This document shows positions 12,569-31,168 of a stretch of 44,182 nucleotides of DNA, piece by piece; the stretch's first letter is position 1; every line of letters starts with the position of its first letter. Where the stretch lies: assembly GCA_038046185.1 (NCBI GenBank), contig JBBSWR010000144.1:1-44182 (forward strand). The letters are read 5' to 3'. A program made the position numbers and the translations under genes. Below the pieces are notes generated by a model. The model ran no database searches, was not told the DNA's origin, and worked only from the letters and a program-made list of their open reading frames with translations. Origin of the DNA: Nanobdellota archaeon. Its GTDB lineage: Archaea > Nanobdellota > Nanobdellia > Woesearchaeales > GW2011-AR4.

Positions 12569-12580
12569 AAAAGGGAAACA

Positions 12581-14989: not shown

Positions 14990-15001
14990 CGGTGAATAAA
15001 A

Positions 15002-15017
15002 ACGAAAGATTTATATA
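15002..15017 (+). promoter_or_regulatory. BRE/TATA-like promoter box of locus copy 1 (RHH pair + giant gene)
   Basis: acgaaagatttatata ends 52 bp upstream of the ATG at 15070. Confidence 0.55.
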
Positions 15018-15069
15018 AGACTTAGAAGTAAGTATATTATCATACAAACATCTTACTAAAAGATTACAA

Positions 15070-15240: not shown

Positions 15241-15244
15241 TGTC

Positions 15245-15520: not shown

Positions 15521-18500
15521 AGCCGGTAATAAACAAAGTGAAAAAAAATTAATGTTTCATATCATTCTACTTATACTTATATTATGCTTCTGGTTAATTT
15601 TTGCTTTAGCAGTTAAGGCATATCAGAATGAAAAAGGAATTTATCTGAGCATAGATAATTTGGAGCTAAACCAGCAAGATGTTATTTTTGACTTAGACAA
15701 TGTCAATTCTGGCTTGCATAGCAAAAATAAAACAATCTTTTTGAATTTAAAATATGGTGATGATATAAATTACGATAAAGATAATGATGGCATAGAAAAA
15801 ATAAACGGGGTTATAGATTTTGTTGCTGATGCAAAGTTTAATTGGGATGTTTATGAGGATAAGCTTTGCGCCAGATGGGAAATATATTCAATAGAAAAAA
15901 ACAGCTTAACTGCAATTTGTTATGGCAGCCAAAAATGCTGCGGGTTCGTAAGTCTTGACTCAACAAGGGAAAATTGGAGTACCCCTTTATATTTAACATA
16001 TGGTATGCACGATGCTTCTGAAAATAATATTATAAGTGCCCAAGTTATATATGTTGACTATAACTTAAGCAGAGAAAGGCCTTATTCAGAAATATATTAC
16101 TCGCGATGGAGCAGTTTAACAGCGAGGTTTGAAGAAAGCATTGGCTCAGTTAAAAACATTAGCATGGAAGAAGCGCTGAGAAGTGTTGATAAGATAAGAA
16201 GAAATAATACACAAATCAAAAAAATAGACTTAAAAGACAAATATGGTAATGAATTAAGAGAATTGAGCCAAGGCAAGAACGCCAGTATGGTGTTTAGTGT
16301 TGCTCATAGTAAGGTGAATGATAATTCAACCAGCCGCTTGTCCAGGCAAAATGTAAATAACGAAATAATAGTATCTTTGAACGATTTCAACGCATCAAAT
16401 GCAGACTGGGACAGCAGCAAAAACATCAAGATAAAAACAGAGAATATAGGTTTAGAAGATTCGCTGAAGCAATATGGCATGGATACCAAGGCAATCGTCT
16501 CCGTTCAGGGAGTTGACGATTTCATATCCGATAAAAACTACTATGGCACTGTCAAATTTAACATATCTGACGTTTTCAATGTTGTAATATACTGCCCGGA
16601 CGACAAAATCGGCTCTTGCAGATATGCGCAAGAATGCATTAATGGTTTTAAGGGCGTTGAATGCTATGTTAAAAATCTAAGCTCATTGATAATCTATGTG
16701 CCTCATTTCTCTTCCATAATCCTTGGATTAGACAACAGAACGGCAAATCTTACAATAAAAAGCCCTGAAAACTCAAGCGTTCTGCAAAGCGGAGAAAATA
16801 TATACCTAAATTTTACAATAAATGAGACTGTAAATGCAAATTATTCCCTGGATGCAAAACCATTTATTAATTTAGGCAATGAAGCATCGTTCAGCGGCTT
16901 GCTTAATGGCAGTATAAATTACGGAATCTTGGAAAATGGTGCGCATAATATTTCAATTAATATACGGGACATTTTCGGAAATAAAGCCATTATAAATTAT
17001 TCTTTTTGGGTTAATGATACAGCGGCACCTAATGTTTTATTAAATATAACAAACAATACGGCATTCAGCGGAACGAGCGGGTTGATTTCTGCCAGCTTTA
17101 ATTCCAGCGAATACTCTACTTTAAGCTATAAAATAAACAACAATAATTTCTCAAATCCAATCGACCTAGGCGCAAATAAATACAAAATTATGAATATAAC
17201 ATTCTCGGGCGGGGTAAACAACCTGACAATTAATGCTTCAGATTTCCATAATAATGGCAATTTGAACTATTTTAGCTTCAATTTTACACTCTTTCAACAG
17301 CCTTCTTGTTCAGATGCATTGCAAAATGGGGATGAAACTGGAGTTGATTGTGGCGGGGGGTGCGGAACTTGCATAAATTTCAGTGTTGCGACTGATAGGG
17401 AATCTTATAATCTGACGGATAATGTCTTTGTAACTGTTATAGCACGAGCAAATTCCACAGTCAATTTGACAATAATACGGCAAGACTTAGTTGCTTATAG
17501 GCACACTTTCATTCCTGTATTCAGCGGCGCACCTGTTGCTGAAACAAGAATAATTTCAAACACTAGCAATGCAGGAAATTATACAATCAATGCTACTCTG
17601 TACTATTTGAACATAACTCAATATATAAACAGGACATTTGAAATATTGCCTCCAGTGGCGAGCCCTATTGCTGTTACAATTATGCCTAACGCAACAACAA
17701 TAAAGGAAGGAAATCCCGTATTCTTTGCCTCAAGCGTATCAGGCAATAATAGTGCAGTTTCTTATAAATGGGATTTCCAAAATGATGGCGTTATAGACAG
17801 CACCAGCGATAGCCAAGTTTTCACATATGCATCAAATGGAACCTATACCGTAAATCTGACTGTAAGCGACTCAAAGTGGAACCAAACCGATTTAGAGACA
17901 ATTTATGTTAAAAAAGTGTATAATGTTACAGTGATAGTTAGGGATAACTCTACTTCTTCTGCTATCCAAAATGCAGAAATCTGGCTTGAGGACGAAATCA
18001 GAAATACAACTGGTTCAGGGACTGCTGATTATTCAAACATAGCTGGGTTTTACAGGTTGATGGTCAAAAAACCCGGCTATGCACAATTTTCAAATAAAAC
18101 AGAAATAAATGGCAATTCATTGCTCGAAGTCGTCTTGATAGAAGATGACAATTTGCCTCCGATAATACAGCTCATTAGTCCGACAGACAAATCAACAATT
18201 TCCAATGGCATAATTTCCTTTGTGTATAGAGCCTTAGACAAATCCCTCTTAAGCTGTACATTATACACAAAAATGAATTCAAGCGAGTGGAAAATATCTG
18301 GCGTTGATTCAAATCTGCAAAGCAATGCAGAGAACTCATTTACTATCAGCGGATTGAAAAATACAACATACGAGTGGAAAATAGGCTGCATAGACGCTGG
18401 AAGCAATTCGAATTATAGTGAAATATACTCGTTTACAGTTGACGCATCTTTAATAGAAAATCAGCTTTCTATCGATTTAAATGAGGAAGATAAGAATTCT

Positions 18501-19751
18501 GAAGATATACTGTCTCAAATAAGTGAAATTATGTCGGAGATTGGCAGCTTAAATGCAGAAAACAAAGAAGCTGCAGAAGCGCTGCAATTAAAGAACAATT
18601 TAGATAAAGCAGTAATAGCCGTACAGAGGGCTAACAGAGACTTACACAGCCTACAATGGAGAAAACTAAATGACACCGAATTAGAGGAAGAAACAAAAAA
18701 TATCCTCAATAGAATAAAAATTTTGAAGGATACTACTCCAAAAACTATAAAAGTAATTGATAAAAATGAATTTGTTAAGTATCCCAACAAGGAGGATATA
18801 AATAATGCGCTTCAAATACTGGCTAATTCCACAAATGCCAAATTAAGCAAAAACAATTTGAACGACCTAGTGCAGCAAAACTTTAAGTTGCAGTCTTTGA
18901 TTAGTGTTACAACAAAAGCCAAAATAATCGACGTTGAGTACATATCTGGAAATAAAAATACAATAACCCTTATACAAAAAATAGTCAACTTTGATAAAGA
19001 CTTTAAAGATTTAGTCTATTTTGAAGTTATACCAAAGGGCATTGCAAAAAATTTAACCGAGCTTAAATTATTGTTTGATTATGAGGTTGTTGATAATGAC
19101 CCTGTTATTAAGATTGACCTATCAAAGATAAAAGATTATTCTTTCTACGTGGAAAAAAAAGTGAGCCTAGAGAGCACCGAGGAAATAAAATCTGTGTTGT
19201 TAAGCAAAAACTTGAAATCCGAAAGCGGAAACTTACTGACAGGATTTTCTGTATTTGACCAGATTCCGGGAAATTTAGTTAAAACATTGAATGCAAGATT
19301 AATTATCGAGTTTGCCGTTATGATAATCCTGCTGCTTGTGTTTTTGCATTACCAGTTTGGAAGCTCTGGTAAATTTAAGTACGCATTTAATGGGAAGGAA
19401 TTAAATGAAACCAAACAGCTGATAGATTCGGCCCTAGTTGAAGTTAATAATAATAATTATGAAAAATCTTCCTTGATATACAAAGAGGTTAATATTAAAT
19501 TTAATAATCTTGATAAAAAGAAAAAAGATATGATTAAGGATTCTGTTATAGAATTGATAAATAGAATTAATAGATTATACATTAATCAGCTGGCAGAAAA
19601 GGCAAATAACTGCATAAAGGCAAATAATAAGCAGGCGGCATTTGCAATTTATTCTCAAATACAATCTTTGTATAGGGTAATACCTAAGAATTACAAGGCT
19701 GAAGTTTCAAAGAAATGTTTGGAACTTTATAGTGCAATGAACTCAAATTAA
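15513..19751 (+). CDS. Giant (1412 aa) type-I-like surface protein: N-terminal anchor, sequon-rich ectodomain with PKD-like and carboxypeptidase-regulatory-like domains, C-terminal TM and cytoplasmic helical tail
   Basis: N-terminal TM LMFHIILLILILCFWLIFALAV. PKD-like stretch VSYKWDFQNDGVIDSTSDSQVFTYASNGTYTVNLTVSD. Cys knot QNGDETGVDCGGGCGTC. CarboxypepD_reg-like stretch VTVIVRDNSTSSAIQNAEIWL..GFYRLMVKKPGY. C-terminal TM LIIEFAVMIILLLVFLHY followed by a ~120-aa tail. Confidence 0.8.
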   Translation: MNKAGNKQSEKKLMFHIILLILILCFWLIFALAVKAYQNEKGIYLSIDNLELNQQDVIFDLDNVNSGLHSKNKTIFLNLKYGDDINYDKDNDGIEKINGVIDFVADAKFNWDVYEDKLCARWEIYSIEKNSLTAICYGSQKCCGFVSLDSTRENWSTPLYLTYGMHDASENNIISAQVIYVDYNLSRERPYSEIYYSRWSSLTARFEESIGSVKNISMEEALRSVDKIRRNNTQIKKIDLKDKYGNELRELSQGKNASMVFSVAHSKVNDNSTSRLSRQNVNNEIIVSLNDFNASNADWDSSKNIKIKTENIGLEDSLKQYGMDTKAIVSVQGVDDFISDKNYYGTVKFNISDVFNVVIYCPDDKIGSCRYAQECINGFKGVECYVKNLSSLIIYVPHFSSIILGLDNRTANLTIKSPENSSVLQSGENIYLNFTINETVNANYSLDAKPFINLGNEASFSGLLNGSINYGILENGAHNISINIRDIFGNKAIINYSFWVNDTAAPNVLLNITNNTAFSGTSGLISASFNSSEYSTLSYKINNNNFSNPIDLGANKYKIMNITFSGGVNNLTINASDFHNNGNLNYFSFNFTLFQQPSCSDALQNGDETGVDCGGGCGTCINFSVATDRESYNLTDNVFVTVIARANSTVNLTIIRQDLVAYRHTFIPVFSGAPVAETRIISNTSNAGNYTINATLYYLNITQYINRTFEILPPVASPIAVTIMPNATTIKEGNPVFFASSVSGNNSAVSYKWDFQNDGVIDSTSDSQVFTYASNGTYTVNLTVSDSKWNQTDLETIYVKKVYNVTVIVRDNSTSSAIQNAEIWLEDEIRNTTGSGTADYSNIAGFYRLMVKKPGYAQFSNKTEINGNSLLEVVLIEDDNLPPIIQLISPTDKSTISNGIISFVYRALDKSLLSCTLYTKMNSSEWKISGVDSNLQSNAENSFTISGLKNTTYEWKIGCIDAGSNSNYSEIYSFTVDASLIENQLSIDLNEEDKNSEDILSQISEIMSEIGSLNAENKEAAEALQLKNNLDKAVIAVQRANRDLHSLQWRKLNDTELEEETKNILNRIKILKDTTPKTIKVIDKNEFVKYPNKEDINNALQILANSTNAKLSKNNLNDLVQQNFKLQSLISVTTKAKIIDVEYISGNKNTITLIQKIVNFDKDFKDLVYFEVIPKGIAKNLTELKLLFDYEVVDNDPVIKIDLSKIKDYSFYVEKKVSLESTEEIKSVLLSKNLKSESGNLLTGFSVFDQIPGNLVKTLNARLIIEFAVMIILLLVFLHYQFGSSGKFKYAFNGKELNETKQLIDSALVEVNNNNYEKSSLIYKEVNIKFNNLDKKKKDMIKDSVIELINRINRLYINQLAEKANNCIKANNKQAAFAIYSQIQSLYRVIPKNYKAEVSKKCLELYSAMNSN

Positions 19752-19755
19752 TTAT

Positions 19756-22095
19756 ATGAAATCAATAAAAGAAGTGCAAAATAATAAATTAATAGAGCTC
19801 GTAGTAATAATATCCTTATTCTTTATACTCAGTATAGACCTCCATGCTTTCGCCCAAACCAGCGTTAAAATTGAGCCTGAGCAAATAACTAAAAGAGTAA
19901 AACTAGGAGATTTCGTTGAAGTTCCAATCAAAATAACAAATGACGGCACTACTCAATTATCCTTAAGATTTGGCATTGAAGGCGATTTGATTAAAGTTGC
20001 GGCATTAGATAAAAATGGCGCTGCTATAGAGCCTGGGGCTGCTGAGCAGATAAAGCTAACTGTATTCGGAGAAAATATAACCACGCTTACAGGGCATTTT
20101 ACTGTTTCAGGAACAATTGAAGAAAGAATACCAATTAACATAACTGTAACTAGCTTAGACACAATTCCTGTAGAAGCATTACTGATTGAAATAGAACCCA
20201 TAACCGAAAAAGCAAAAATAGGGGACATCTTTAAGTATAAGATAAGCCTGCAAAATCTCATAACCGACAGAACATATAATGTTACATTATCTTCAAGCAT
20301 AGACAGATTGGAAGACCAATCAACTTATAAATTTGAAAAATCATTTTTTACGGAAACGGATGATGTGCAGCTATCCACTGCTTTTTCCCTAGTGAAGGAA
20401 TTTGCCATGCCTGATTTTATCAGACCGGGAGAATATGTGATAAACGTAAAGGCAGAGTATCTTGGCTTGTCATCGTCATCCAGCAAACGCTTTAGGGTAG
20501 TAGAGCCAATTCTTGACTATGAGTTATTGGGCATACTGCCCATTAGATGGGCATTGTTCTCAGGAATATTTGTTATAACCGGATTATTATCCTTTTTTAT
20601 CTATAAGAAGAGGAAGGCTAAAAATAAGCGATATGTTGCAAAAGTTGAATATAGCCTGTTGCCCCAGCCAGGCCCAAGATCAGCGTATATAGGTATGATA
20701 CCGGAAACAAACAAAAAAACTTATTTTGACATAGACCAATTGCAGACGCATACACTAGTTGCCGGCTCCACAGGCGGCGGCAAGACAGTATCAGCTGAGG
20801 TTCTGGTCGAGGAAGCTTTAATTAAAGGAACGGCTGTGATAGTCTTTGATCCCACTGCCCAATGGACGGGCTTCTTAAGAAAGAATGCTGATAAAAGAAT
20901 GTTTGCCCTCTATCCAAAATTTGGCCTTAAGAAGACTGATGCAAGGGCTTTCAATGGAAATATAAGGCAGATTATGAATGCAAGGGAGATTATAGATATT
21001 AAAAAATTTATTAAGCCCGGGGAAATAAACATTTTTTCAGTGAGCAAATTAGATCCTGAAGATATTGATATACTTGTTGCAAATACCGTAAGGGAAGTAT
21101 TTCATGCAAACCTTCCTGAAAGCAGCCAGTTAAAACTTCTCATAATTTTTGATGAAGTTCACAGATTATTGCCAAAATTTGGCGGCTCAGGGCAAGGTTT
21201 CATACAGATAGAAAGAGCAGCCAGAGAATTCAGAAAGTGGGGAGTCGGCTTGATACTAATAAGCCAAGTTTTGACAGATTTTGTAGGAGAGACAAAAGCC
21301 AATATAAACACAGAAATACAAATGAGAACCAGAGATCAAGGAGACCTCGAGAGGATAAAGAACAAGTATGGCTCTTACATGCTTCAGTCATTGCTTAAAT
21401 CTGCAACCGGCACAGGCATGATGGAAAACGCAGCATATAATAAAGGCAATCCTTATTTCGTATCTTTTAAGCCGCTGCTGCACGAGCATGCGCGCTTAAG
21501 CGACGAGGAATTGGATAATTACAACAAATACAATGAAGTTATAGAAGATTTAGACTACCAGCTTGAGCAGCTTGAAAAATCTGGAGTGGATATATTTGAT
21601 CTAAAGCTCGAGGTTAAGATGGCCCTTGATAAGGTAAAGTCAGGGAGCTTCAATATGGTTAATATATATCTTGAAGGGCTTACTCCAAGGATAAAATCCA
21701 ATTGGGATAAATTAGGCAAACAGCCTGAAAAAAGGAGATTAAAACTGGTTACAGAATCAGAATTAAAAGAAGAGCTGGAACGAGCCAAAGAAGCGAGAAA
21801 AAAATTCGAAGATCATCAGAAATCGGCTCCTAAATCTGGTTTAGAGGAACATGGAGTTCTCACGCTAAAAAATGGAATTGTAATAGCAAAGAAAAAAGAA
21901 ATGTTAGACGCGCTTCAGGCAATAGACGATAAAACATTCATAGCTCATGTTAACGAGCAGAGAAATGATTTCAGTGATTGGCTGGCAAATATCGATAAGG
22001 AAGCAGCTGAAAAAATAAAGGCAATAAAGACAAGAAAAGAGATGATAGAGATTTTAAAAAAGCTTGAAGCGCAAAATCAGGCAATTCCAAGTTAA
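19756..22095 (+). CDS. Bitopic membrane protein: ectodomain - TM - cytoplasmic HerA/FtsK-like (DUF87-type) P-loop ATPase - C-terminal N-D-F-x-x-W domain
   Basis: Signal/anchor LIELVVIISLFFILSIDLHAFA. TM WALFSGIFVITGLLSFFIY followed by KKRKAKNKRY. Walker A VAGSTGGGKT. Walker B LLIIFDEVH. HerA-like AAREFRKWGVGLILISQ. C-terminus FIAHVNEQRNDFSDWLANI. Confidence 0.8.
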   Translation: MKSIKEVQNNKLIELVVIISLFFILSIDLHAFAQTSVKIEPEQITKRVKLGDFVEVPIKITNDGTTQLSLRFGIEGDLIKVAALDKNGAAIEPGAAEQIKLTVFGENITTLTGHFTVSGTIEERIPINITVTSLDTIPVEALLIEIEPITEKAKIGDIFKYKISLQNLITDRTYNVTLSSSIDRLEDQSTYKFEKSFFTETDDVQLSTAFSLVKEFAMPDFIRPGEYVINVKAEYLGLSSSSSKRFRVVEPILDYELLGILPIRWALFSGIFVITGLLSFFIYKKRKAKNKRYVAKVEYSLLPQPGPRSAYIGMIPETNKKTYFDIDQLQTHTLVAGSTGGGKTVSAEVLVEEALIKGTAVIVFDPTAQWTGFLRKNADKRMFALYPKFGLKKTDARAFNGNIRQIMNAREIIDIKKFIKPGEINIFSVSKLDPEDIDILVANTVREVFHANLPESSQLKLLIIFDEVHRLLPKFGGSGQGFIQIERAAREFRKWGVGLILISQVLTDFVGETKANINTEIQMRTRDQGDLERIKNKYGSYMLQSLLKSATGTGMMENAAYNKGNPYFVSFKPLLHEHARLSDEELDNYNKYNEVIEDLDYQLEQLEKSGVDIFDLKLEVKMALDKVKSGSFNMVNIYLEGLTPRIKSNWDKLGKQPEKRRLKLVTESELKEELERAKEARKKFEDHQKSAPKSGLEEHGVLTLKNGIVIAKKKEMLDALQAIDDKTFIAHVNEQRNDFSDWLANIDKEAAEKIKAIKTRKEMIEILKKLEAQNQAIPS

Positions 22096-22118
22096 GTGTG
22101 TTTTTATTTTACACACAC
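22096..22118 (+). terminator. Hairpin immediately after the stop of the 779-aa ATPase gene
   Basis: gtgtgt-ttttatttt-acacac has perfect 6-bp arms and a T-rich loop, starting 1 nt after the TAA. Confidence 0.4.
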
Positions 22119-22121
22119 TAA

Positions 22122-22209
22122 GCCAACAATAATGGCAGCTGTCGTCACTTCGTTCCCCGTCGGACATCCTGTAGGGAGCATCCCCTATCCGACCAGCGCC
22201 ATTGTTGGC
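22122..22209. ncRNA. Candidate structured RNA/DNA element (GC-rich, long closing helix); strand and class unknown
   Basis: gccaacaat(aat)ggc-a-gctg ... cagc-gccattgttggc closes a ~16-bp helix. The inner helix is gtcgga/tccgac and the apical helix is ggga-gca-tccc. It is far more GC-rich than the flanks. Confidence 0.4.
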
Positions 22210-22290
22210 TTTGAATTTTCCCACTTAACTTGACTTTACCGCAAAATCAATAGGTTTATTAATAAGTAATCCAGCAGCATTTAGAAGAAA

Positions 22291-22614
22291 ATGGATACTC
22301 AACAAGATTTTAGGTACATCCCGAAAAGGAAGCTATCAGAAGCGGAAAAACAAATAATAATGCTCAGAATAGAAAAACTTAAGCTGCATAGAGAAAAATC
22401 ACTTCTCATATTGAATAAAGGAATAATACTATTTTTTGTATTTTTGGCAGTTGCTGTTGTAGGTTTGGTAAACAAAATGGTTACTGTTATGCAGCTTAAT
22501 ATACTTGTTTTAACTGGATTTCTGGCTTTGATTGTGGGTGTTTTGCCTTATAGTTTTGCAACAAGAAAAGAAGAAAAAGAGCTGGAAAAAACTATAGACG
22601 AGCTGATAAACTAA
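22291..22614 (+). CDS. Small membrane protein (N-terminal charged helix + two TM helices)
   Basis: Two hydrophobic helices: GIILFFVFLAVAVVGLV and LNILVLTGFLALIVGVLPY. Its stop lies 2 nt before the first KaiC-like gene. Confidence 0.55.
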   Translation: MDTQQDFRYIPKRKLSEAEKQIIMLRIEKLKLHREKSLLILNKGIILFFVFLAVAVVGLVNKMVTVMQLNILVLTGFLALIVGVLPYSFATRKEEKELEKTIDELIN

Positions 22615-22616
22615 AA

Positions 22617-23294
22617 ATGGAAAGGGTCAAATCTGGAATAAACGGATTGGATGCTCTCGTAAATGGCGGCTTTCCAAGAGGTCATTCTATACTTTTATGC
22701 GGAGCGCCTGGCACTGGTAAAACCATATTTGGGCTGCAATTTTTGTATAAGGGTGCAAAGAATTTTAACGAGAATGGCTTGTATGTAAGCATAGAGGAAA
22801 ATCCAAGTAAATTAAAAGATTATTCCAAAGAATTCGGCTGGAAGGATATAGACAAACTCGAAAAGGATGGCAAAATACAATTTCTTAGAGTTCCCCCAGA
22901 CAAAAGAAAATTTGATATAGTTGATTCTGTCAGGCAGAAAGTGCAGGAAATTAATGCAAAAAGGCTGGTTGTGGATTCTTTGTCTGCGGTTTATCTGGCA
23001 TTTGAAGATATTACGCAATTCGTATATCACTTTATAAATTTAATAGAAGAACTTGGAATAACCTGCATCTTCATAACAGATTCCCCGCATGGCTCCAGCG
23101 AGTTAACAAAAGATGGCGTATCTGAATTTGTATGCGATGGGGTCATACAACTCCAGCTTAATGATGCCAGCAAAATTGTAAACAGGACGATTGCTGTCAA
23201 GAAGATGAGAGGCACAAGCATAGTTCCAGGACTGAATAGCTTGAAATTTACTGAATCAGGACTAGAAGTTGAGGAATATAAAGCATTTTATTGA
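22617..23294 (+). CDS. Single-domain KaiC/RadA-superfamily ATPase (KaiC-like 1)
   Basis: GINGLDALVNGGFPRGHSILLCGAPGTGKTIFGLQFLYKG (Walker A) and RLVVDSLS (Walker B). 225 aa is the typical archaeal single-domain KaiC-like size. Confidence 0.8.
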   Translation: MERVKSGINGLDALVNGGFPRGHSILLCGAPGTGKTIFGLQFLYKGAKNFNENGLYVSIEENPSKLKDYSKEFGWKDIDKLEKDGKIQFLRVPPDKRKFDIVDSVRQKVQEINAKRLVVDSLSAVYLAFEDITQFVYHFINLIEELGITCIFITDSPHGSSELTKDGVSEFVCDGVIQLQLNDASKIVNRTIAVKKMRGTSIVPGLNSLKFTESGLEVEEYKAFY

Positions 23295-23313
23295 TTTCGC
23301 AATACAACAAAAA

Positions 23314-24015
23314 ATGAACAAAGAAGAGAGGATTACTACGGGAATAAAAGGGCTGGATAAATTAACAGACGGGGGTTTTGAGAAAAATAGCGCTGTTTTA
23401 GTTCAAGGAGGAGGAGGCAGCGGAAAGAGCATTTTTGCTACCCAGTTTTTGGCTGAGGGTATACTGCATAATAACGAAACCGGCATTTACATATCATTTG
23501 AGGAGGTCAAAGAAAGGTTTTATAAGCACATGCTGGTATTTGGATGGGACTTGAAGAAGGTTGAGGAGCAGGGAAGATTCATATTCTTAAAGTATAGTCC
23601 TGAGAGGATAGCAAAAATAGTCAAGGAAAGGAGCAAAGAAATTGAAAACTCGATAAAGGAAGTGGAAGCAAAAAGAATAGTGATTGATTCGCTGTCAGCA
23701 TACACTTCGCTGTTCGAAAGTGAGTCAGAAAAAAGAAAAATGCTTGTAGCATTATTTGACATGATTAAGGAGTGGGATTGCACGACTGTTGTTGTTGCCG
23801 AAGAGGATAATCATCCAGATCAGTATAATTCCTCGGTTATGGGTTTTATGGCTGATGCAATTATATTATTTTACAACGAAAGAGAGCCAAAAGGATTGCG
23901 CTTTAGAGCTGTAGAGGTATTTAAAATGAGGGGTACAAAGCACGAGTCAAAGATATGCTCAATGAAGATTACAGAACATGGGATTGAAGTTTATCCCGAT
24001 ACTATTGTGTTATAG
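23314..24015 (+). CDS. Single-domain KaiC/RadA-superfamily ATPase (KaiC-like 2, divergent)
   Basis: ATG at 23314. GIKGLDKLTDGGFEKNSAVLVQGGGGSGKSIFATQFLAEG (Walker A GGGGSGKS) and RIVIDSLS (Walker B). Confidence 0.75.
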   Translation: MNKEERITTGIKGLDKLTDGGFEKNSAVLVQGGGGSGKSIFATQFLAEGILHNNETGIYISFEEVKERFYKHMLVFGWDLKKVEEQGRFIFLKYSPERIAKIVKERSKEIENSIKEVEAKRIVIDSLSAYTSLFESESEKRKMLVALFDMIKEWDCTTVVVAEEDNHPDQYNSSVMGFMADAIILFYNEREPKGLRFRAVEVFKMRGTKHESKICSMKITEHGIEVYPDTIVL

Positions 24016-24080
24016 TCATAATTTTAACTTAAAAAAAGTTTAAATAAAAAACAAAAGCACAAATGATGTTGGGTGATTGA

Positions 24081-24842
24081 ATGAAAAAAATAAAAAGTGG
24101 TATAAGGGGACTTGACGCACTTATTGGCGGCGGATTTCTTGATGGGCATTCCGTATTAATATGCGGTGCTCCCGGCACAGGGAAGACTATTTTTGGGCTG
24201 CAGTTCCTGTATAAAGGAATAAAAGAAGAGAATGAAAATGGATTATTTGTAAGCGTTGAAGATAAAACAGAAAAATTGCTGTATTATGCCAGCCAGTTTG
24301 GGTGGAGTTTAGAGCAGTTTTTGAAAGAAAGAAAAATAGAATTCATGAAAGTTCCGATAGACCAGCGCGGATTTATGCTCGTTGATGCAATAACAGAAAA
24401 AGCTAAGAAGATAAATGCGAAAAGAATTGTCATTGATTCGCTGTCTGCATTGTCTATAAATGCAAAGATGTTCAATCTCCCATTGCACAACCAGCCTGAT
24501 CCAACAGGAACAATAAAGAAAAAAATCCTGAAGACGGCGGGCTACACCCCTTTTGAAGATATTTCACAGTTTACATATTTGTTTATAGACAGGATTGGTG
24601 ACATAAACGCCACAACCTTGTTTTTGACTGATACTGATGGCTCAGCGACATTGACCAGAGACGGGGTCTCAGAGTATGTCTGCGATGGCGTTATATTCTT
24701 ACAGCTGCATGACACAAGCAAGAATGTAAGCAGAACATTATCTGTTAAAAAAATGAGAGGCTGCGACATAATTCCGGGCATGAATAGCCTAAAGTTTACA
24801 AAAAGCGGCTTAGAAGTGGAAGAATTTAAGGCATTTTATTAG
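24081..24842 (+). CDS. Single-domain KaiC/RadA-superfamily ATPase (KaiC-like 3, close paralog of 1 with an insertion)
   Basis: GIRGLDALIGGGFLDGHSVLICGAPGTGKTIFGLQFLYKG. C-terminus MNSLKFTKSGLEVEEFKAFY compares with LNSLKFTESGLEVEEYKAFY in KaiC-like 1. There is a ~28-aa insertion after Walker B. Confidence 0.8.
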   Translation: MKKIKSGIRGLDALIGGGFLDGHSVLICGAPGTGKTIFGLQFLYKGIKEENENGLFVSVEDKTEKLLYYASQFGWSLEQFLKERKIEFMKVPIDQRGFMLVDAITEKAKKINAKRIVIDSLSALSINAKMFNLPLHNQPDPTGTIKKKILKTAGYTPFEDISQFTYLFIDRIGDINATTLFLTDTDGSATLTRDGVSEYVCDGVIFLQLHDTSKNVSRTLSVKKMRGCDIIPGMNSLKFTKSGLEVEEFKAFY

Positions 24843-25221
24843 ATAAATCATAAAATCAGAAATTTTTACGTGCGTAAGTGGAAAGCATGGAGTGAACTCT
24901 GTTGTTTAGTCAAGAATTTTTCAGGTAATTTAATAATAAACGGAGTAATTTTCCTATTTATTCTATTGGGAATCGATAACACCCGGTTAGCATACCAGTA
25001 AAAAATGCTAAGTAATAATTGAGAAAATTAGCAAAAAAAGAATTAATAATCTATTGATTTTCTGGTTCATAACAAAAATGGAATGTGAGTCGTATTATAT
25101 ATATATATCAATTTAATCTTTACTAAACTTAAATAATTTTGTATTTAATTAATTATTTAATTGCATACTCAATATGTATTTATATGTAATTAATATACAT
25201 TTTTCTATACTAATTACAAAA

Positions 25222-25237
25222 ACGAAACATTTATATA
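25222..25237 (+). promoter_or_regulatory. BRE/TATA-like promoter box of locus copy 2
   Basis: acgaaacatttatata ends 32 bp upstream of the ATG at 25270, implying a short or absent leader. Confidence 0.55.
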
Positions 25238-25269
25238 TGATTTAATATGATTAAGTATGTAGTAATAAT

Positions 25270-25434
25270 ATGAAAGAACGAATTACCATAAACTTGGATA
25301 AAGAATTTCTTAATTGGCTAGACCAAAAAATAGCCGAAAAAGTGTTCGCAAACAGAAGCCATGGATTTGAATATTTAATCAAGAAAAAAATGCAGTTGGA
25401 AGATGAAAGAAAGACTAACAATTACTCTGGATAA
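25270..25434 (+). CDS. Ribbon-helix-helix protein, 54 aa (below ORF-track cutoff)
   Basis: Hand translation: MKERITINLDKEFLNWLDQKIAEKVFANRSHGFEYLIKKKMQLEDERKTNNYSG. BRE/TATA lies at 25222-25237. Confidence 0.55.
   Translation: MKERITINLDKEFLNWLDQKIAEKVFANRSHGFEYLIKKKMQLEDERKTNNYSG
25313..25374 (+). repeat. 62-nt near-identical segment (1 mismatch) repeated at 25446..25507; core of a 133-bp tandem duplication of the RHH gene
   Basis: attggctagaccaaaaaatagccgaaaaagtgttcgcaaacagaagccatgg[a/g]tttgaatat occurs in both copies at an offset of 133 bp. Confidence 0.9.
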
Positions 25435-25558
25435 GGAATTGCTCGATTGGCTAGACCAAAAAATAGCCGAAAAAGTGTTCGCAAACAGAAGCCATGGGTT
25501 TGAATATATGATTATGGAAAAGATTAGAGAGAAAACTAAGGAAGAGAAAAATGAATAG
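25403..25558 (+). CDS. Ribbon-helix-helix protein, 51 aa, tandem duplicate of 25270..25434
   Basis: Hand translation: MKERLTITLDKELLDWLDQKIAEKVFANRSHGFEYMIMEKIREKTKEEKNE. It starts inside the 3' end of the first copy in another frame. Its stop lies inside the ATGAATAG that starts the next gene. Confidence 0.55.
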   Translation: MKERLTITLDKELLDWLDQKIAEKVFANRSHGFEYMIMEKIREKTKEEKNE

Positions 25559-28500
25559 CAAGAAAAAAATCTTTGACTACAAATTTATGTACGTCATATT
25601 ACTAATCGTATTATTAGGTGGAGCTATTATTGGTTTGGTTATGGTTAAAAAATTTATAGGGTTTGCCGGCACTCAAATTCCTGCACAAGCGGGTTACATT
25701 ACTACTGTAGCAATAGATCATAGAGAAATAACCTCCTATTGGGCAGGTATTTTTGGCCTTGTTTTTTCACAGGAGGGATTCGATGAAACACAAACTATAG
25801 CTGCGACTTCTGGGGCAATTTCAGCAGAGACTTTTGTATTTGAGTGCATGGACCCAACAAAAGCCGTTAATGAAATGTATGCAAGCAATAATATCACAAT
25901 AAATTTCTCGAATGTTATTGCCGGAAATACTGATATGATTGACCGGGATTTGCTGAATTTAAGCAATAATACCAAAGAAAGAGCAAATAATACTTTTACT
26001 TATAATGAATCAATATTGCTTGGCACAACAAATATATCTGGCATTCCTTCTGTGTATACCAATGTTAATGATGCTCCAAACAATACGCTGTTTTTTACCG
26101 GTATACTTAATTCAAGCGGCAAGCTTGTTCTGGTCATCAAAGTTTTTGCTGCCTCCAAAAGAAGTTTTAAAGGTACACTTATTGACTATCAGGCACTGCT
26201 GCCTGTAAAAAATAATTCAGCAACATGGTATTTTTTTGCAGATCCAAATGACAACTGCCCAGCCGGCTTCGGTTCAGGACAAATCGGAGATTCAGTAATA
26301 AGTGGTTTTGTATTTGAATCAAATAGCACACTTCCAATTTCAGATGCAACAGTCAGCGCGGGCGGCAATGTTTCTCTAACAGATTCTAATGGGTTTTTCA
26401 ATTTCACGGCTCCTGGGGGGGTGACATACCATATAATAGCAATTAAGTCCGGATATGTTACCAATATAAGCGTAATAAATACGACAATTGGCGAAGAAAC
26501 AAAACAAAACATGACACTTGCGAAATTCTTTGGATTTTTGGGTGCAAACGCTACAATATCTGGCTACGTAAAAGACAACTCAACTAACGCTACAATTGCC
26601 AATGTTACTATTAGCATTGCCGGACTGACTGCACAATCAAATGCAACCGGAAACTATTCTATTTTGATACCAGAGGGAACGCATGTAATAGCTGCCGTTA
26701 AAAGCGGCTACAGCAATTTTGTCGGCAATTTTTCAATAAGGGACAGCCAAAATTTAAGCTTTATAATTAATATGACAGCTGCAATTAGTGCAGTGGCTCA
26801 AACCCAAAATGGAACACTGCTTAACAATGGAACTATACAAGGATTTGTAACAGACAACTCAACCAACCTTAGCCTGGCAAATGTTATTGTAACTGTAGCT
26901 GGAGTGTCAAACGCAACAAATAGCTCTGGATTTTATAACATAACAGCTTTGCAAGGCACAACCAATCTAGTTGCAACAAAAAGCGGTTATAATGCTTACG
27001 CAAGAGAAGTAGATATATTAGCAAATAACATAACGATACTGAATTTTAGCATGAGTCCTATTTCCGTGGCTGTAGGAGTAGGTAATGGTTCAGTAAAGGG
27101 ATTAGTAAAAACATCTTCAGGAACTTTGATTAGCGATGTTGCAGTAAGCGTTGCCGGAAAATCAAATTCAAGCAACTCCAGCGGCGGATACTTTTTAGGC
27201 CAAGTGTTAGCAGGAACTCATAATCTAGTTGCTACAAGATCTGGTTTCAATAACTATGTAGCTGTGATAAATGTCACAGAAAGTGCAACAACAGAGCATA
27301 ACATAACAATGATAACCACAACAGAGGCTGGCTTAGGCGCTGGAAGCGGCGCCGGTCAAGGCGCCGGTCAAGGCGCCGGTCAAGGCGCTGGAAGCGGCGC
27401 AGGCACAGGCATTCAGTCACAATTAGAGCAGCCTACACGTGTAGTTGATTACGAGATATCTGTCAAGAAAATATTGAGAAAATTGAAAGTAGGTAACTTT
27501 ATTGGTGTTCCTATAGATATTTCCAACTATAAAACACAATCAATGGACTTAAAGTTTTCAATAGAAGGAGACGTCAAGAAAATTGCAAGGATTGATAAGG
27601 AAAGACTTGTTATAGATGCTGGTTCCAGTGGGGAAGTTATGGTTACCTTACTTGGAAACGTTGAGCCCGGAGTATATGATGGTTTCCTTGCCATAACTGG
27701 CGATATAAACGAGCAAATTCCAATTTACGTATTAGTACTTGAAAAAGACAGGTTATCAGTTGAAGCTCTAGTTATAAAGATTTCTTCTCAGGACAAAAGG
27801 GTAGCAGCAGGCGACATATTCAAATATACAGTTGACTTGCAAAATTTATTGAGTGAAGAGAAATATAAAGTTGCATTATCTTACAGTTTGCAAGGCATTA
27901 ATAATAACAAGAGCACGTTTCTGGAAAAGGAAGAGATTGTGATGTATACTTCATTTTCTTTATTAAAAAGTTTCCAAGTTCCCAGCGATTTGCCTGTAGG
28001 AGATTATGCGTTGAAAGTAAAAGCGGATTTTCTTGATTTGACAGCAGAACAATCTACAATATTTACGGTAGTTGAACCAATCTACAAATACGCTTTATTC
28101 GGGATTATTCCCGCATGGATTTTGGCTGCTTTAATTCTTACACTTTCGCTAGGGACTTTTTCAACATTAGTTTACAAAAAAAGAAAAGAAGAAAAAAGAA
28201 GGTATCAGATAGAGTTAGATTATTCACAATTGCCGCAGCCAGGCCCAAGATCAGTATATATAGGGCATATCGCAGAAACGAGTAATAAAACCTATTTTGA
28301 CCTTGACACATTCCAAGTTCATACATTAGTGGCTGGCTCAAGCGGCTCCGGAAAAAGCCTGGCTGCACAGATTTTAGTGGAAGAAGCTTTGCTAAAGGGC
28401 GTGGCAGTAATAGTCTTTGATCCAACTGCCCAATGGACAGGATTTCTGAGAAAACTGGAAGATAAGAGATTGCTAAGCATGTACAAAGGATATGACCTAA

Positions 28501-29714
28501 GAAGGACAGATGCACGGGCATTCAATGGAAATGTGCGTCAAGTTACAAATGCGCGGGAATTAATAGAATTCAAGAAATTCATGAAACCGGGAGAAATAAA
28601 CATATTCGTAACTAATAAGCTTGAAATAAAGGACATAGAGTTATTTGTGGCAAATACAATAAGGGAGGTTTTCCATGCAAATCTGCCCGAAAGCCGAGAA
28701 TTAAAGTACTTGATGGTATATGACGGAATACACGCTTTATTGCCAAAATTTGGCGGCTCCGGCCAGGTTTTTGTGCAGATAGAAAGAGCAGCCAGAGAAT
28801 TCAGAAAGTGGGGAGTCGGCTTGGTATTGATAAGCCAGGTGCTAAGTGATTTCCCTCAAGAAGTACTTGCAAACATCAATACGGAGATAATGCTAAGAAC
28901 AAGGGATGAGGGCGACCTCAACAGGATTAAGGAGAAATATGGCGATAAGATACTGCAGTCAGTTGTCAAAGCTGCTGTAGGCACTGGAGTTATACAAAAC
29001 TCTTCCAACAACAAAGGTAAGCCGTATTTCGTGAGTTTTAGGCCGCCGATGCACAGCATTCAAAGTATAAGCGAAGAGGAATTAGAGAAATACAACAACT
29101 ATAATGAGATAATAGAAGATTTGAGCTACCAGCTTGAGCAATTAGAAAATGAAGGTATTGATATATTTGACTTAAAGCTGGAATTAAAGCTCTCGCAAGA
29201 TAAGGTAAAATCCGGCAATTTCAATATGGTCAATATATATTTAGACGGCCTAAAACCAAGGATAAAATCCCAGTGGGAAAAACTTGGAAAAAAACCCAAA
29301 AAAAGAGAAATAAAATATATATCGGAAGGGGAGTTGGAAGGGGAGTGGGAATTAGCAACGCAGGAAAGGAAGAAATACATAAGCAAAGATAAATTAGCAG
29401 AAGAGAGCAAAAACGGAGAGCAAAAAGAGGGTACTGAAATGGAAGACACAAGCTCTAAAGAAAAAAAAGAAAGCTTTGAAGCATCATCCAACAAAATGAT
29501 TGACCCTGATGATGACCAAAACAATAATTTGGAAATGTCGTTCGAGAAATTGTATATCCAAACAAAGAATCTGATTGCAAAAAATGAAAAAGAGAAAGCG
29601 GGCAACCTATACCACGAAATACAGAATATTTATAAGAGCGCGCCCAAGGAAATCAAATCAAAGATACTGGCGAAATGCATTGAAATACAAAAAAATTTAA
29701 GTAATGTAAAATAA
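25551..29714 (+). CDS. 1387-aa fusion protein: N-terminal anchor + four carboxypeptidase-regulatory-like repeats + Gly/Ala/Gln linker + ectodomain-TM-HerA/FtsK-like ATPase module + acidic region + helical tail
   Basis: TM1 FMYVILLIVLLGGAIIGLVMV. Four ~90-aa repeats (ISGFVFESNS.., ISGYVKDNST.., IQGFVTDNST.., VKGLVKTSSG..). Linker GLGAGSGAGQGAGQGAGQGAGSGAGTG. From ~aa 625 it is collinear with the 779-aa protein. Walker A VAGSSGSGKS. Walker B region YLMVYDGIH. AAREFRKWGVGLVLISQ. Confidence 0.8.
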   Translation: MNSKKKIFDYKFMYVILLIVLLGGAIIGLVMVKKFIGFAGTQIPAQAGYITTVAIDHREITSYWAGIFGLVFSQEGFDETQTIAATSGAISAETFVFECMDPTKAVNEMYASNNITINFSNVIAGNTDMIDRDLLNLSNNTKERANNTFTYNESILLGTTNISGIPSVYTNVNDAPNNTLFFTGILNSSGKLVLVIKVFAASKRSFKGTLIDYQALLPVKNNSATWYFFADPNDNCPAGFGSGQIGDSVISGFVFESNSTLPISDATVSAGGNVSLTDSNGFFNFTAPGGVTYHIIAIKSGYVTNISVINTTIGEETKQNMTLAKFFGFLGANATISGYVKDNSTNATIANVTISIAGLTAQSNATGNYSILIPEGTHVIAAVKSGYSNFVGNFSIRDSQNLSFIINMTAAISAVAQTQNGTLLNNGTIQGFVTDNSTNLSLANVIVTVAGVSNATNSSGFYNITALQGTTNLVATKSGYNAYAREVDILANNITILNFSMSPISVAVGVGNGSVKGLVKTSSGTLISDVAVSVAGKSNSSNSSGGYFLGQVLAGTHNLVATRSGFNNYVAVINVTESATTEHNITMITTTEAGLGAGSGAGQGAGQGAGQGAGSGAGTGIQSQLEQPTRVVDYEISVKKILRKLKVGNFIGVPIDISNYKTQSMDLKFSIEGDVKKIARIDKERLVIDAGSSGEVMVTLLGNVEPGVYDGFLAITGDINEQIPIYVLVLEKDRLSVEALVIKISSQDKRVAAGDIFKYTVDLQNLLSEEKYKVALSYSLQGINNNKSTFLEKEEIVMYTSFSLLKSFQVPSDLPVGDYALKVKADFLDLTAEQSTIFTVVEPIYKYALFGIIPAWILAALILTLSLGTFSTLVYKKRKEEKRRYQIELDYSQLPQPGPRSVYIGHIAETSNKTYFDLDTFQVHTLVAGSSGSGKSLAAQILVEEALLKGVAVIVFDPTAQWTGFLRKLEDKRLLSMYKGYDLRRTDARAFNGNVRQVTNARELIEFKKFMKPGEINIFVTNKLEIKDIELFVANTIREVFHANLPESRELKYLMVYDGIHALLPKFGGSGQVFVQIERAAREFRKWGVGLVLISQVLSDFPQEVLANINTEIMLRTRDEGDLNRIKEKYGDKILQSVVKAAVGTGVIQNSSNNKGKPYFVSFRPPMHSIQSISEEELEKYNNYNEIIEDLSYQLEQLENEGIDIFDLKLELKLSQDKVKSGNFNMVNIYLDGLKPRIKSQWEKLGKKPKKREIKYISEGELEGEWELATQERKKYISKDKLAEESKNGEQKEGTEMEDTSSKEKKESFEASSNKMIDPDDDQNNNLEMSFEKLYIQTKNLIAKNEKEKAGNLYHEIQNIYKSAPKEIKSKILAKCIEIQKNLSNVK
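27348..27383 (+). repeat. Three perfect tandem 12-bp repeats (ggcgccggtcaa) encoding (GAGQ)3 inside CDS 25551..29714
   Basis: Read directly. They are flanked on both sides by ggcgctggaagcggcgc. It is a GC-rich island in an AT-rich gene. Confidence 0.9.
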
Positions 29715-29715
29715 A

Positions 29716-29961
29716 ATGGCCGAAGGCATAGATTTAACTGTAGAAAATTTAAAACAGGAGTTAAATCAAATCAAGGATAAAATTAGCCAATGCAGGAAAA
29801 AGGGAATGGATACTAAAATCGCAGAGCTTAAGATTATGGCCATACCCTCAAAAATCAAGATGCTTGAAGTAACAAAAGATTTCAAGGATGTGCAAAAAAT
29901 AGCTAAACTTTTAAATGATGCTATAGCTGAAATAGACAATGTAGAAAAAGGAGGATTATAG
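29716..29961 (+). CDS. Small coiled-coil protein
   Basis: Starts 1 nt after the stop of the fusion gene. The 81 aa are heptad-like and K/E/I-rich. Confidence 0.5.
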   Translation: MAEGIDLTVENLKQELNQIKDKISQCRKKGMDTKIAELKIMAIPSKIKMLEVTKDFKDVQKIAKLLNDAIAEIDNVEKGGL

Positions 29962-30056
29962 GGAGTTTTGAATGTCCTAAAAAATGCATTGCATTTTTGG
30001 GAACTTGAACTCGGTTCAAGTAAATGGGAAAAATAATGAATTTTTCAAAATTCTTT
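29961..30056. repeat. ~100-nt double-hairpin intergenic element, copy 2
   Basis: gggagttttgaatgtcctaaaaaatgcattgcatttttgggaacttgaactcggttcaagtaaatgggaaaaataa...ttcaaaattcttt. It has the same order of blocks as 5877..5981. Confidence 0.75.
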
Positions 30057-30082
30057 ATAATATCCCCATGAAGTGATTTGCT

Positions 30083-31168
30083 ATGATGTTTTTCAAGAAA
30101 AAAAATAAGGAAGAAGAACCAAAGCCAGCGGAAGCCGAGCTAGACGAAGAAGGTAATTTGATAGTTCCGGTTGCATCATCGCCGCACAGCGAAAAAACAC
30201 CAGAAAGTAGTGATGTTTCGGTTGGAATGCTAACTGCTGATGTCGAAAAGCTGAAAGCACAGTTTAGTACATTCTATGAATTACAAAAAACTTCTACAGA
30301 GCGTTTTTCTATGATAAACCAGCAAATTGGTGAGTTAAGGAGCATGCTAATCGACAGGGACAAAGCTGCTCAGCACCTAGAGGCAAAAGCTACGCAAGCA
30401 ATTGACATTGTAAAAACGGTGCAGCCAGACAAGCTTATGATTGAGATGAGAAAAACAGATGGTAAGATTGAGGCTTTACGGGCAAATCTGGAAAGTACGG
30501 AGAACACAATAAATAATGTTGTCAATGAAATTAAAGAAGTCAAGAATAAAATGAATGTTTTTAGGGGTATGGAACAAGTCATAAGCTTAAACGAAGAAGC
30601 AAAAAAAGAGCTTATGGATATAAAAAAAGTGCAGGCAATTGTCGAGAGGCATGCGGATAAGGTTGAGACGGTATTTACTGAAATGCAGAAAAAATCCAGC
30701 GAATTTGTTAAGGTTGGAGATACTGTTAAAGATCTTGACAAATCCTTCAAGCAAATAAGCTCTGAGTTTGATTCAATAAAAATTAAGATTTCGGATTTGG
30801 CACATAAAAAGGAAGTCGAAAACCTTATATCTAAGTTTGACGACTTTGAAAATTATGCTGGCAATATACTCAAGTTAATAAACAGCAAATTTGAAAAAAT
30901 GGAAAAAGAATTAGGTCTAGAGTTTAATAAAAAGTTCGAAGAAACAGATAAATTGCTGAAAGGATTTGAGATGTTGTCGCAAAAAATACCGGATTTGGAC
31001 AAGTATTTCAATTTACTTCAAGATGAAGCAAAAAAAGTGCCGCCGGATGGATCGAAGGTAGAAAAAATAAAGGAAATAGGAGAAGAAAGTCCTGAAGTGA
31101 CTGTTGAGCCAAATAACCCCGGCATATTTGGAAAAATAAAGGGTTTTGCAGGCAAATTCAAAAAATGA
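30083..31168 (+). CDS. Long coiled-coil protein with C-terminal amphipathic basic tail
   Basis: 361 aa, almost entirely heptad-like charged sequence. The C-terminus GIFGKIKGFAGKFKK resembles a membrane-targeting amphipathic helix. Confidence 0.6.
   Translation: MMFFKKKNKEEEPKPAEAELDEEGNLIVPVASSPHSEKTPESSDVSVGMLTADVEKLKAQFSTFYELQKTSTERFSMINQQIGELRSMLIDRDKAAQHLEAKATQAIDIVKTVQPDKLMIEMRKTDGKIEALRANLESTENTINNVVNEIKEVKNKMNVFRGMEQVISLNEEAKKELMDIKKVQAIVERHADKVETVFTEMQKKSSEFVKVGDTVKDLDKSFKQISSEFDSIKIKISDLAHKKEVENLISKFDDFENYAGNILKLINSKFEKMEKELGLEFNKKFEETDKLLKGFEMLSQKIPDLDKYFNLLQDEAKKVPPDGSKVEKIKEIGEESPEVTVEPNNPGIFGKIKGFAGKFKK

Follow-up and report, generated by a model that had tools for sequence, protein, structure and literature searches.

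A conserved module of a small membrane protein and three KaiC-like ATPases beside transmembrane HerA genes in Woesearchaeota-type archaea

What might three adjacent genes for KaiC-like ATPases, led by the gene of a small membrane protein, be doing between two loci that encode HerA-like ATPases in an archaeon of the DPANN group? The locus that raises this question was read on contig JBBSWR010000144.1 of a Nanobdellota archaeon (GCA_038046185.1), as a stretch of 44,182 nucleotides (nt) that is here called the window. The stretch was found only in groundwater metagenome DNA runs, and its close relatives carry the labels Candidatus Woesearchaeota, Nanoarchaeia, or Nanoarchaeota. Here, we describe the four genes as a conserved module that keeps company with genes for transmembrane (TM) HerA ATPases. 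The best explanation for this arrangement, which we regard as about evenly poised between right and wrong, is that the module would act as a regulator or assembly partner of the neighbouring TM-HerA motor, by analogy with the KaiC-like protein ArlH.

Four intact open reading frames (ORFs) on the plus strand fill positions 22291-24842 of the window. The first (22291-22614), recognized from its ORF and translation, encodes TM107, a helical-hairpin membrane protein of 107 amino acids (aa). The other three encode single-domain ATPases that match PF06745 far above its gathering cut-off of 26.6 bits, with profile positions 1-231 covered: KaiC1 (22617-23294; 225 aa; KaiC(CI)-like; 197 bits, E 5.4e-58), KaiC2 (23314-24015; 233 aa; KaiC-like; 199 bits, E 1.2e-58), and KaiC3 (24081-24842; 253 aa; KaiC(CI)-like; 167 bits, E 5.6e-49). 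The ATG of KaiC1 lies 2 nt past the TAA stop of TM107. The KaiC2 ORF had been listed as 23269-24015, starting from a TTG at 23269 and overlapping KaiC1; because its orthologs measure 232-238 aa, the real start is almost certainly the ATG at 23314, which yields 233 aa and removes the overlap.

The module lies between two HerA loci, both read from the plus strand. Upstream is HerA1 (19756-22095; 779 aa; PF01935 and PF05872), a TM HerA/FtsK-like ATPase whose sequence reads as an N-terminal ectodomain, one TM helix, and a cytoplasmic ATPase; motif inspection finds an intact Walker B DE in that ATPase. Downstream, beyond two small RHH genes, HerA2 (25551-29714; 1387 aa) heads a second locus and is resolved by Pfam as a fusion of four CarboxypepD_reg ectodomains, a TM helix, and a HerA ATPase. 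The envelope-apparatus locus as a whole runs in the order RHH regulators, giant PKD surface protein, TM-HerA, RHH regulators, fused ectodomain-HerA, and coiled-coil proteins. This layout agrees with an initial annotation of the same DNA, which had described a 107-aa protein with two TM helices, a 2-nt gap, and three tandem single-domain KaiC-like ATPases placed between two HerA loci; the ORFs, the spacing, and the PF06745 matches are as it claimed, and the TM spans are a reading of the sequence. The window is AT-rich (G+C ~35-39%), and an Rfam scan gave no match in or beside the module, the sole match in the window being a tRNA-Ser gene (33129-33212).

The case for a link to HerA is carried by the orthologous loci (given L numbers here). 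These were taken from the contigs of KaiC1 and KaiC3 relatives and from one genome per species scanned with the KaiC1 ortholog alignment; all were searched with the window's proteins, and co-occurrence was judged on contig neighbourhoods. The initial annotation had reasoned that its proposed link to TM-HerA would suffer if homologs of the trio mostly lacked TM-HerA neighbours. For the orthologs this is not so: a TM-HerA gene adjoins the module in all 11 loci with enough flank, the window included, which represent ~9 distinct lineages of Woesearchaeota type after allowing for near-duplicate assemblies (L013 was excluded, its flank being too short to judge). HerA1 is immediately upstream in 10 of them (the window, L001, L002, L003, L004, L008, L011, L014, L015, and L016). 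The remaining locus, L012, has a gene for a CARDB surface protein upstream in place of HerA1, and the RHH-HerA2 locus directly downstream provides the only HerA that adjoins the module; L001 and L002, conversely, hold HerA1 only and are without the HerA2 locus. Adjacency to HerA has in this way outlasted the loss of either HerA paralog as well as a full turnover of the flanking genes. Indeed, when all 44 window genes were compared, the block common to the loci proved to be exactly positions 15070-31168 of the window, and no window gene outside it recurs in the flanks of the other loci.

Within this block, the KaiC genes are the best-conserved part, and KaiC2 ranks highest of all genes, with 78-88% identity across loci. 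KaiC1 and KaiC2 stand in the same order behind TM107 in every orthologous locus, and KaiC3 comes next wherever the contig reaches. Each of the four module families comprises a similar number of protein clusters (~38-52). The paralogs thus co-occur in a fixed manner, both by constant gene order and by cluster counts. Only L015 fits in part: a 2-kb insert follows its KaiC2, and the contig then ends ~37 residues into the next KaiC gene. The insert (11387-13387) holds two genes between KaiC2 and the KaiC3 start, one on the opposite strand for a protein of 257 aa that resembles a winged-helix regulator by eye, the other for a protein of 394 aa with a weak calcineurin-like phosphoesterase match. As a separate observation, L013 (labelled Aenigmatarchaeota) and L014 (labelled uncultured Methanosarcinales) carry protein-identical copies of a Woesearchaeota-type locus, and L015, also labelled Methanosarcinales, carries another copy of it, which suggests that these three labels reflect mis-binning or mislabelling.

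All three ATPases look catalytically competent from their motifs; none appears inactivated. In KaiC1, the Walker A motif (G29-T36), the acidic pair E60-E61, the Walker B residue D120, S169-E170, K196/R198, and the tail EEYKAFY are invariant across 12 orthologs. KaiC3 has the corresponding Walker A (G29-T36), E60-D61, D119, S197-E198, K224/R226, and tail EEFKAFY, and KaiC2 has Walker A GGGGSGKS (residues 32-39), EE, Walker B DS, FKMRGT, and tail PDTIVL. When orthologs from nine other loci were aligned, Walker A, the acidic pair (EE; ED or EE in KaiC3), Walker B hhhhDS, and the Arg of KMRG were kept in every copy, and the conserved C-terminal tail took the form E-[EG]-[EFY]-K-[AV]-F-Y in KaiC1 and KaiC3 and PD[TAV][IV]V[LM] in KaiC2. 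We considered a degenerate P-loop in KaiC2 and rejected it: GGGGSGK[ST] fits the pattern GxxxxGK[ST] and is common to the solo relatives of KaiC2, and it is best read as a trait of the wider DPANN family that contains KaiC2, not as decay.

The three proteins are not equally related. KaiC1 and KaiC3 had been called close paralogs with nearly identical ends, which is borne out by 55% identity, near-identical termini, and one gap of 30 residues behind the Walker B DSLSA, the last representing an insertion in KaiC3 that had been put at ~28 aa. In a maximum-likelihood tree, the KaiC1 and KaiC3 clades are sisters (support 100/100), and the underlying duplication is, as read from this tree, older than the divergence of the sampled genomes. 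KaiC2, correctly singled out earlier as the divergent member with the GGGGSGKS Walker A, is 34% identical to KaiC1 and occupies a long branch of its own. The next relatives of KaiC2 show 53-64% identity; both of those whose contigs were read are solo genes, and all four of those whose sequences were read share the P-loop type. On this comparison, KaiC2 descends from a distinct, widespread DPANN family whose KaiC genes stand alone, and the trio is built from two DPANN KaiC lineages. Solo KaiC relatives in unrelated contexts are 42-47% identical to KaiC1 and KaiC3 or 58-64% identical to KaiC2. One further solo gene is of KaiC3 type (L017 10010-10660; 68% identical to KaiC3); it lacks the first ~36 residues, Walker A included, adjoins a TPR/PMT_2 (mannosyltransferase-like) gene in an unrelated context, and is probably a decaying copy.

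To which KaiC family, then, does the trio belong? The initial annotation had suggested a comparison with ArlH, and membership in that family (NF052589, NF004723, NF006320) is ruled out by the NCBIfam scores, which reach 40, 51, and 49 bits for the three proteins against a cut-off of 215; the solved ArlH structure (PDB 4wia) is matched by KaiC2 only (E 6e-6). In fact, none of the three proteins rises above any NCBIfam family cut-off. KaiC_arch_3 gives up to 147 bits against 249, and the circadian KaiC families (NF006799, TIGR02655) give 129-157 against 408 and 93-117 against 546, the trio proteins having a single domain and not the CI+CII architecture of ~500 aa. RadA/Sms (29-37 bits against 403), RadB (27 against 172), and DnaB (20-22 against 385) match in the ATPase domain only, without their accessory domains. 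The GvpD family (PF07088) is matched by KaiC1 and KaiC3 at 32 and 30 bits, just over the cut-off of 24 and far more weakly than the KaiC profile, and no gvp genes were seen among the Pfam-scanned window ORFs. The same scans of the submitted ORFs found no KaiA- or KaiB-like gene and no T2SSE, ArlJ, or archaellin family match.

The closest relatives of known structure are instead the KaiC CI domain and PH0186. Among solved structures, cyanobacterial KaiC is closest to all three proteins, and PH0186 and PH0284 also match well; KaiC1 scores 125 bits against KaiC CI and 72 against CII. The AlphaFold2 (AF2) model of KaiC3, built from 46 sequences, has a mean predicted local distance difference test score (pLDDT) of 89.6. 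Its top Foldseek matches are PH0186 (2zts) and KaiC CI (4tlb), with target-normalized TM-scores of 0.88-0.90; PH0186 and KaiC CI domains are matched at E 1e-22 to 1e-23 and probability 1.00, with TM-scores of 0.86-0.90 overall. In KaiC1 and KaiC3, the invariant Ser of DG[VI]SE[FY] (S169 in KaiC1) aligns with the Ser of the IST phospho-site of CII, and the following Glu aligns with the Thr; KaiC2 carries Met/Glu-Gly at the positions aligned with this Ser/Thr. From this alignment, autophosphorylation of KaiC1 and KaiC3 is conceivable.

The insert that sets KaiC3 apart (24453-24542, plus strand; ~30 residues, roughly 125-154; SINAKMFNLPLHNQPDPTGTIKKKILKTAG) follows Walker B directly and has a near-invariant QPDPTG core in the aligned KaiC3 orthologs; in L015, where KaiC3 is cut by the contig end, the insert is not visible. 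The AF2 model folds it, with modest confidence (pLDDT 60-73), into a long beta-hairpin with strands at 131-145 and 148-156. Its position is one that we take to correspond to the L1 loop of RecA-fold ring ATPases.

TM107 precedes KaiC1 directly in every orthologous locus, and its family comprises 52 protein clusters, each at least 51% identical to the query; the search returned no remote relatives and none outside the module. Since its stop codon abuts or overlaps the KaiC1 start in L003, L004, and L008, translational coupling of TM107 and KaiC1 is suggested. The AF2 model of TM107 (mean pLDDT 77) is a helical hairpin, with its two long helices at 17-60 and 66-106. Based on the sequence and the positive-inside rule (and not on predictor output), the two membrane spans would cover approximately residues 43-64 and 68-90, with only a very short loop between them, and both charged termini would face the cytoplasm. 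The N-terminal motif is IPKRKLSEAEKQII, and the C-terminal helix is acidic. The invariant residues (P11, K12, R13, K14, E17, A18, and K20) are all N-terminal, and the membrane spans are more variable, as would be expected if TM107 were an anchor that binds a soluble partner through its cytoplasmic part. We therefore propose that TM107 may be the membrane anchor of the KaiC proteins.

A TATA-like box (TTTATTAATAA, 22255-22265, plus strand) was read 26-36 nt upstream of the TM107 ATG, and similarly placed boxes of this type (TTTATTAAT, TTTATAA, or TTTAAAT) occur in L001, L004, L008, L011, and L014. The box at 22255-22265 is likely the module's own promoter, giving a short-leadered or leaderless mRNA, and the module is probably a transcription unit separate from HerA1. 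A terminator-like hairpin with a T-run directly follows the HerA1 stop, and the spacer between HerA1 and TM107 ranges from ~35 nt to ~1 kb across loci, with a transposase remnant in that of L003. A promoter of its own weakens any argument from an operon and has no bearing on a link at the level of the proteins. Additionally, a second TATA-like box (TTTAAATAAAA, 24039-24049, plus strand) lies in the 65-nt gap before KaiC3 and is followed by GGTGA at 24072-24076; these are possibly an internal promoter and ribosome-binding site.

Between the HerA1 hairpin and the TM107 promoter, the window also has a GC-rich structured element (22122-22209) with a folding energy of -36.9 kcal/mol against a shuffle mean of -22.4 (z = -4.5). 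No Rfam family matches it, and the spacers of the orthologous loci show no conservation of its sequence; those of L011 and L015 contain other GC-rich inserts. The promoters of the two RHH-led HerA loci (14960-15069 and 25150-25269) share AAACGAAA-N-ATTTATATA, which is not clearly present in the TM107 promoter. Four or five TTAC-containing repeats with ~10-bp spacing lie upstream in the promoter at 14960-15069 and are candidate RHH operators.

Several features of the neighbouring genes deserve mention in their own right. Three tandem genes of ~100-110 aa (5513-5836, 6018-6317, and 6397-6729) are 26-41% identical to the last ~75 residues of HerA1 (~694-770), a region that is DUF5752-like by a weak Pfam match, and HerA1 orthologs of other loci are matched at this C-terminal region as well; the tail domain thus also exists as free-standing paralogs in this genome. 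The Walker B of HerA2 (28719-28733) is YDGIH, with Gly for the catalytic Glu, in the window and L012 only, and the orthologs in L003, L004, and L008 keep FDEVH; judged from these copies, the loss of the Glu is recent and not a trait of the whole paralog. A CBS-domain protein of 497-704 aa is encoded between the giant PKD surface protein gene and HerA1 in L003 (4874-6367), L004 (5165-7279), and L008 (4309-5808); the window has no such gene at that place. Finally, a 248-aa ORF (9804-10550) without a Pfam match shows 29% identity over ~200 residues to HerA2 ectodomain residues 40-231.

How could such a module serve a TM-HerA motor? We envisage that it was gained once, in one Woesearchaeota-type DPANN clade, by insertion directly downstream of HerA1. 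The three paralogs would be made in fixed proportion and would form KaiC-type rings, most simply one mixed hexamer, tethered at the membrane through the conserved cytoplasmic N-terminal motif of TM107 or its helical stalk. ATP binding and hydrolysis, possibly with Ser autophosphorylation in the G[VI]SE[FY] motif of KaiC1 and KaiC3, would switch the conformation of the ring, which would in turn modulate the assembly or activity of the neighbouring TM-HerA, functionally as ArlH does for ArlI within the ArlX scaffold. Docking might be provided by the beta-hairpin insert of KaiC3 and by the conserved -KAFY tails. This detailed mechanism is less likely than the functional link itself. A still more specific version, a DPANN counterpart of ArlH-ArlI, would have an obligate, all-active mixed ring sit on TM107 under the membrane and stack on the cytoplasmic HerA hexamer as a double-ring engine, with the hairpin and -KAFY tails docking and Ser autophosphorylation timing or gating the translocation of DNA or protein through a host-contact apparatus; we think this version unlikely.

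Certain observations weigh against a role as HerA partner, and some of them speak at the same time for a different view, namely that the module is an independent, membrane-associated KaiC signalling hub, inherited beside HerA1 after a single insertion, with an output that is unrelated to HerA or is transcriptional (e.g. via the neighbouring RHH regulators). A metagenome scan with the HerA1 alignment returned 80 loci with relatives 36-71% identical, whose ORFs were then searched with profiles. The trio was found by that search in none of these 80 wider TM-HerA-family loci, and a lone KaiC-like gene was found in two (L080 and L091); the recurrent partners of HerA there are the coiled-coil protein p361, often together with p81. 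In the HerA tree, the nine HerA1 sequences from loci with the trio fall into a single clade (support 99) whose nearest relatives are without the trio, and with all trio loci in one HerA1 clade, the adjacency may partly be simple inheritance. Because one clade carries the trio and none of the 80 other loci does, the module appears to be a lineage-specific accessory gained once, and not a core TM-HerA component. In the closest trio-less relatives, the slot after HerA1 is taken by a gene for a SpoIIM-like (PF01944) polytopic membrane protein of ~278 aa (L025 1740-2561, L026 12362-13195, and L068 1062-1872); in L016, which has the trio, this gene comes after KaiC3 (12825-13643), so that the module looks as if it had been inserted between HerA1 and the SpoIIM-like gene. 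(SpoIIM-like genes also occur in the more distant HerA loci L035, L046, L052, L053, and L080.) For both KaiC types, the nearest relatives stand alone in housekeeping contexts, next to, e.g. Na+/H+ exchanger, ribosomal protein, or tRNA synthetase genes. The TATA-like box of the module and the variable HerA1 spacer imply that co-transcription with HerA is not required. Moreover, with P-loop and Arg finger intact in all three paralogs, the sequences do not force a mixed ring, and three homo-hexamers are possible.

The link to TM-HerA put forward in the initial annotation is thus partly supported: adjacency holds for the orthologous trios and does not extend to distant KaiC relatives or to TM-HerA loci at large. 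The single gain, the absence from the 80 other loci, the solo relatives, and the own promoter with its variable spacer are all counted in favour of the signalling hub, as is the proposal that KaiC-like ATPases serve generally as signalling hubs in archaea (Makarova et al. 2017 as cited in PMC5847659). Against it stand the retention of TM-HerA adjacency despite the loss of either paralog and the turnover outside the block, the lack of any PAS, GAF, HTH, or KaiB domain encoded in the module according to Pfam, and the recruitment of a KaiC gene by a separate HerA branch. That branch, formed by L080 and L091, is distant within the TM-HerA family; its loci (L080 3460-8003, L091 3774-8324) encode, in this order, HerA (~692 aa), a V4R protein (~135 aa), a single KaiC-like ATPase (~225 aa) in which SEP replaces EE, a p361-like protein, and a protein with two TM helices and a coiled-coil tail, and they probably represent a second, independent recruitment of a KaiC gene to the HerA family. 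We do not rely on the grouping of KaiC2 with the L080/L091 KaiC (support 98/97), given its very long branches (1.6 and 2.2) and the slightly better score of the L080 protein on the KaiC1 profile (112 bits) than on the KaiC2 profile (102 bits). Taken together, we hold an independent signalling hub, the main rival explanation, to be rather unlikely.

Two other explanations concern DNA and defence. The trio might be a RadA/DnaB-like nucleic-acid motor or recombination mediator that processes DNA moved by HerA, e.g. during uptake by a nucleotide-auxotrophic DPANN archaeon, with the KaiC3 hairpin as an L1-type DNA-binding loop. Weak matches to DnaB_C, RadA/Sms, RadB, and phage DnaB/UvsX families point in this direction, as do the weak similarity of the HerA genes to CedD, TraD, and coupling-protein DNA translocases and the placement of the insert where, from general knowledge, the RecA L1 loop lies. 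The DNA-enzyme matches are, however, far under their cut-offs and much weaker than those to KaiC (RadA/Sms 36 against 403 bits, DnaB 20 against 385). The trio has no Zn-finger, Lon, primase, or N-terminal helicase domain, its best structural neighbours are KaiC CI and PH0186 and not helicases, and a membrane-anchor partner would be unexpected for a recombination protein, all of which make this explanation distinctly unlikely. HerA is also a frequent defence ATPase, and the HerA and KaiC genes could in principle be an anti-virus defence or mobile-element module: PADLOC reports generic HerA and mad8 profile matches for both HerA proteins, and the L003 locus contains a transposase fragment. Yet PADLOC finds no defence-family match beyond superfamily level for the KaiC proteins and TM107, the block is without an effector nuclease, SIR2, or similar gene, and HerA proteins with large ectodomains beside giant surface proteins are not defence-like; viral contigs gave no match except one 33% fragment. 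A defence or mobile-element role is accordingly highly improbable. A viral or mobile origin was rejected outright, that fragment being irrelevant and the PHROGs matches being only generic DnaB/UvsX superfamily matches.

For a role as HerA partner, the best mechanistic analogy is the ArlH-ArlI-ArlX system, and it would be an analogy of mechanism only. ArlH is KaiC-like, forms hexamers, autophosphorylates, regulates the ArlI motor, and binds ArlI and ArlX, being located inside the ArlX ring (PMC8978795). Like ArlH, the trio proteins are single-domain, KaiC-like, and encoded beside a hexameric FtsK/HerA-related motor ATPase and a small membrane protein with a cytoplasmic helical part. They differ from it in lying outside the ArlH family (40-51 bits against 215), in having as neighbour a TM-HerA with an ectodomain and not ArlI or another T2SSE ATPase, and in being three paralogs, all with the catalytic Glu, where there is one ArlH. 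ArlX, with its single TM helix, assembles into a large ring, whereas TM107 is read as a 2-TM hairpin with ~40 N-terminal and ~17 C-terminal cytoplasmic residues, and no arlJ or archaellin genes are found among the scanned window ORFs. By fold, the nearer comparison is with KaiC CI, PH0186 (2zts), and PH0284 (2dr3), which give the best sequence matches (E 1e-29 to 1e-61), target-normalized TM-scores of 0.86-0.90, and shared Walker A, EE, Walker B, KxRG, and CI-typical G-V-[ES]-E-F motifs. Circadian KaiC, however, is a double-domain protein; the trio proteins have one domain, fall below the NCBIfam cut-offs, and have no KaiA or KaiB genes beside them among the scanned window ORFs. The KaiC3 hairpin insert, the -KAFY tails of KaiC1 and KaiC3, and the dedicated membrane protein further distinguish the module from KaiC CI, PH0186, and PH0284.

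KaiC families are also known to recur in archaeal loci of type IV pilus and secretion-type ATPases, where they have been proposed as regulators (Makarova, Koonin and Albers 2016, PMC4858521). The resemblance lies in KaiC-like genes placed in or beside loci for membrane-associated secretion-type ATPases and surface structures. Those loci involve VirB11/TadC-type systems (arCOG01171-01175) and are mostly outside DPANN; here, a TM-HerA accompanied by giant surface proteins is the motor, and the KaiC genes come as a constant set of three together with a dedicated anchor candidate. A literature search found no description of a TM-anchored, all-active KaiC trio tied to TM-HerA genes in DPANN archaea. 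KaiC-like regulators of motor ATPases as such are already known.

DPANN archaea depend on other cells, and very little is known of the machines at their surface. One candidate machine is encoded by the TM-HerA locus with its giant surface proteins, and the module supplies soluble, probably enzymatically active partners that are open to expression and assay, with the conserved N-terminal motif of TM107, read as cytoplasmic, as a possible handle for pull-downs. If the link is true, the ArlH-ArlI principle would extend from type IV pilus-like machines to membrane translocases of the FtsK/HerA type, and the module would be an example of a KaiC trio with three apparently live enzymes. If the link fails, the module would still be a clean example of a membrane-tethered archaeal KaiC unit.

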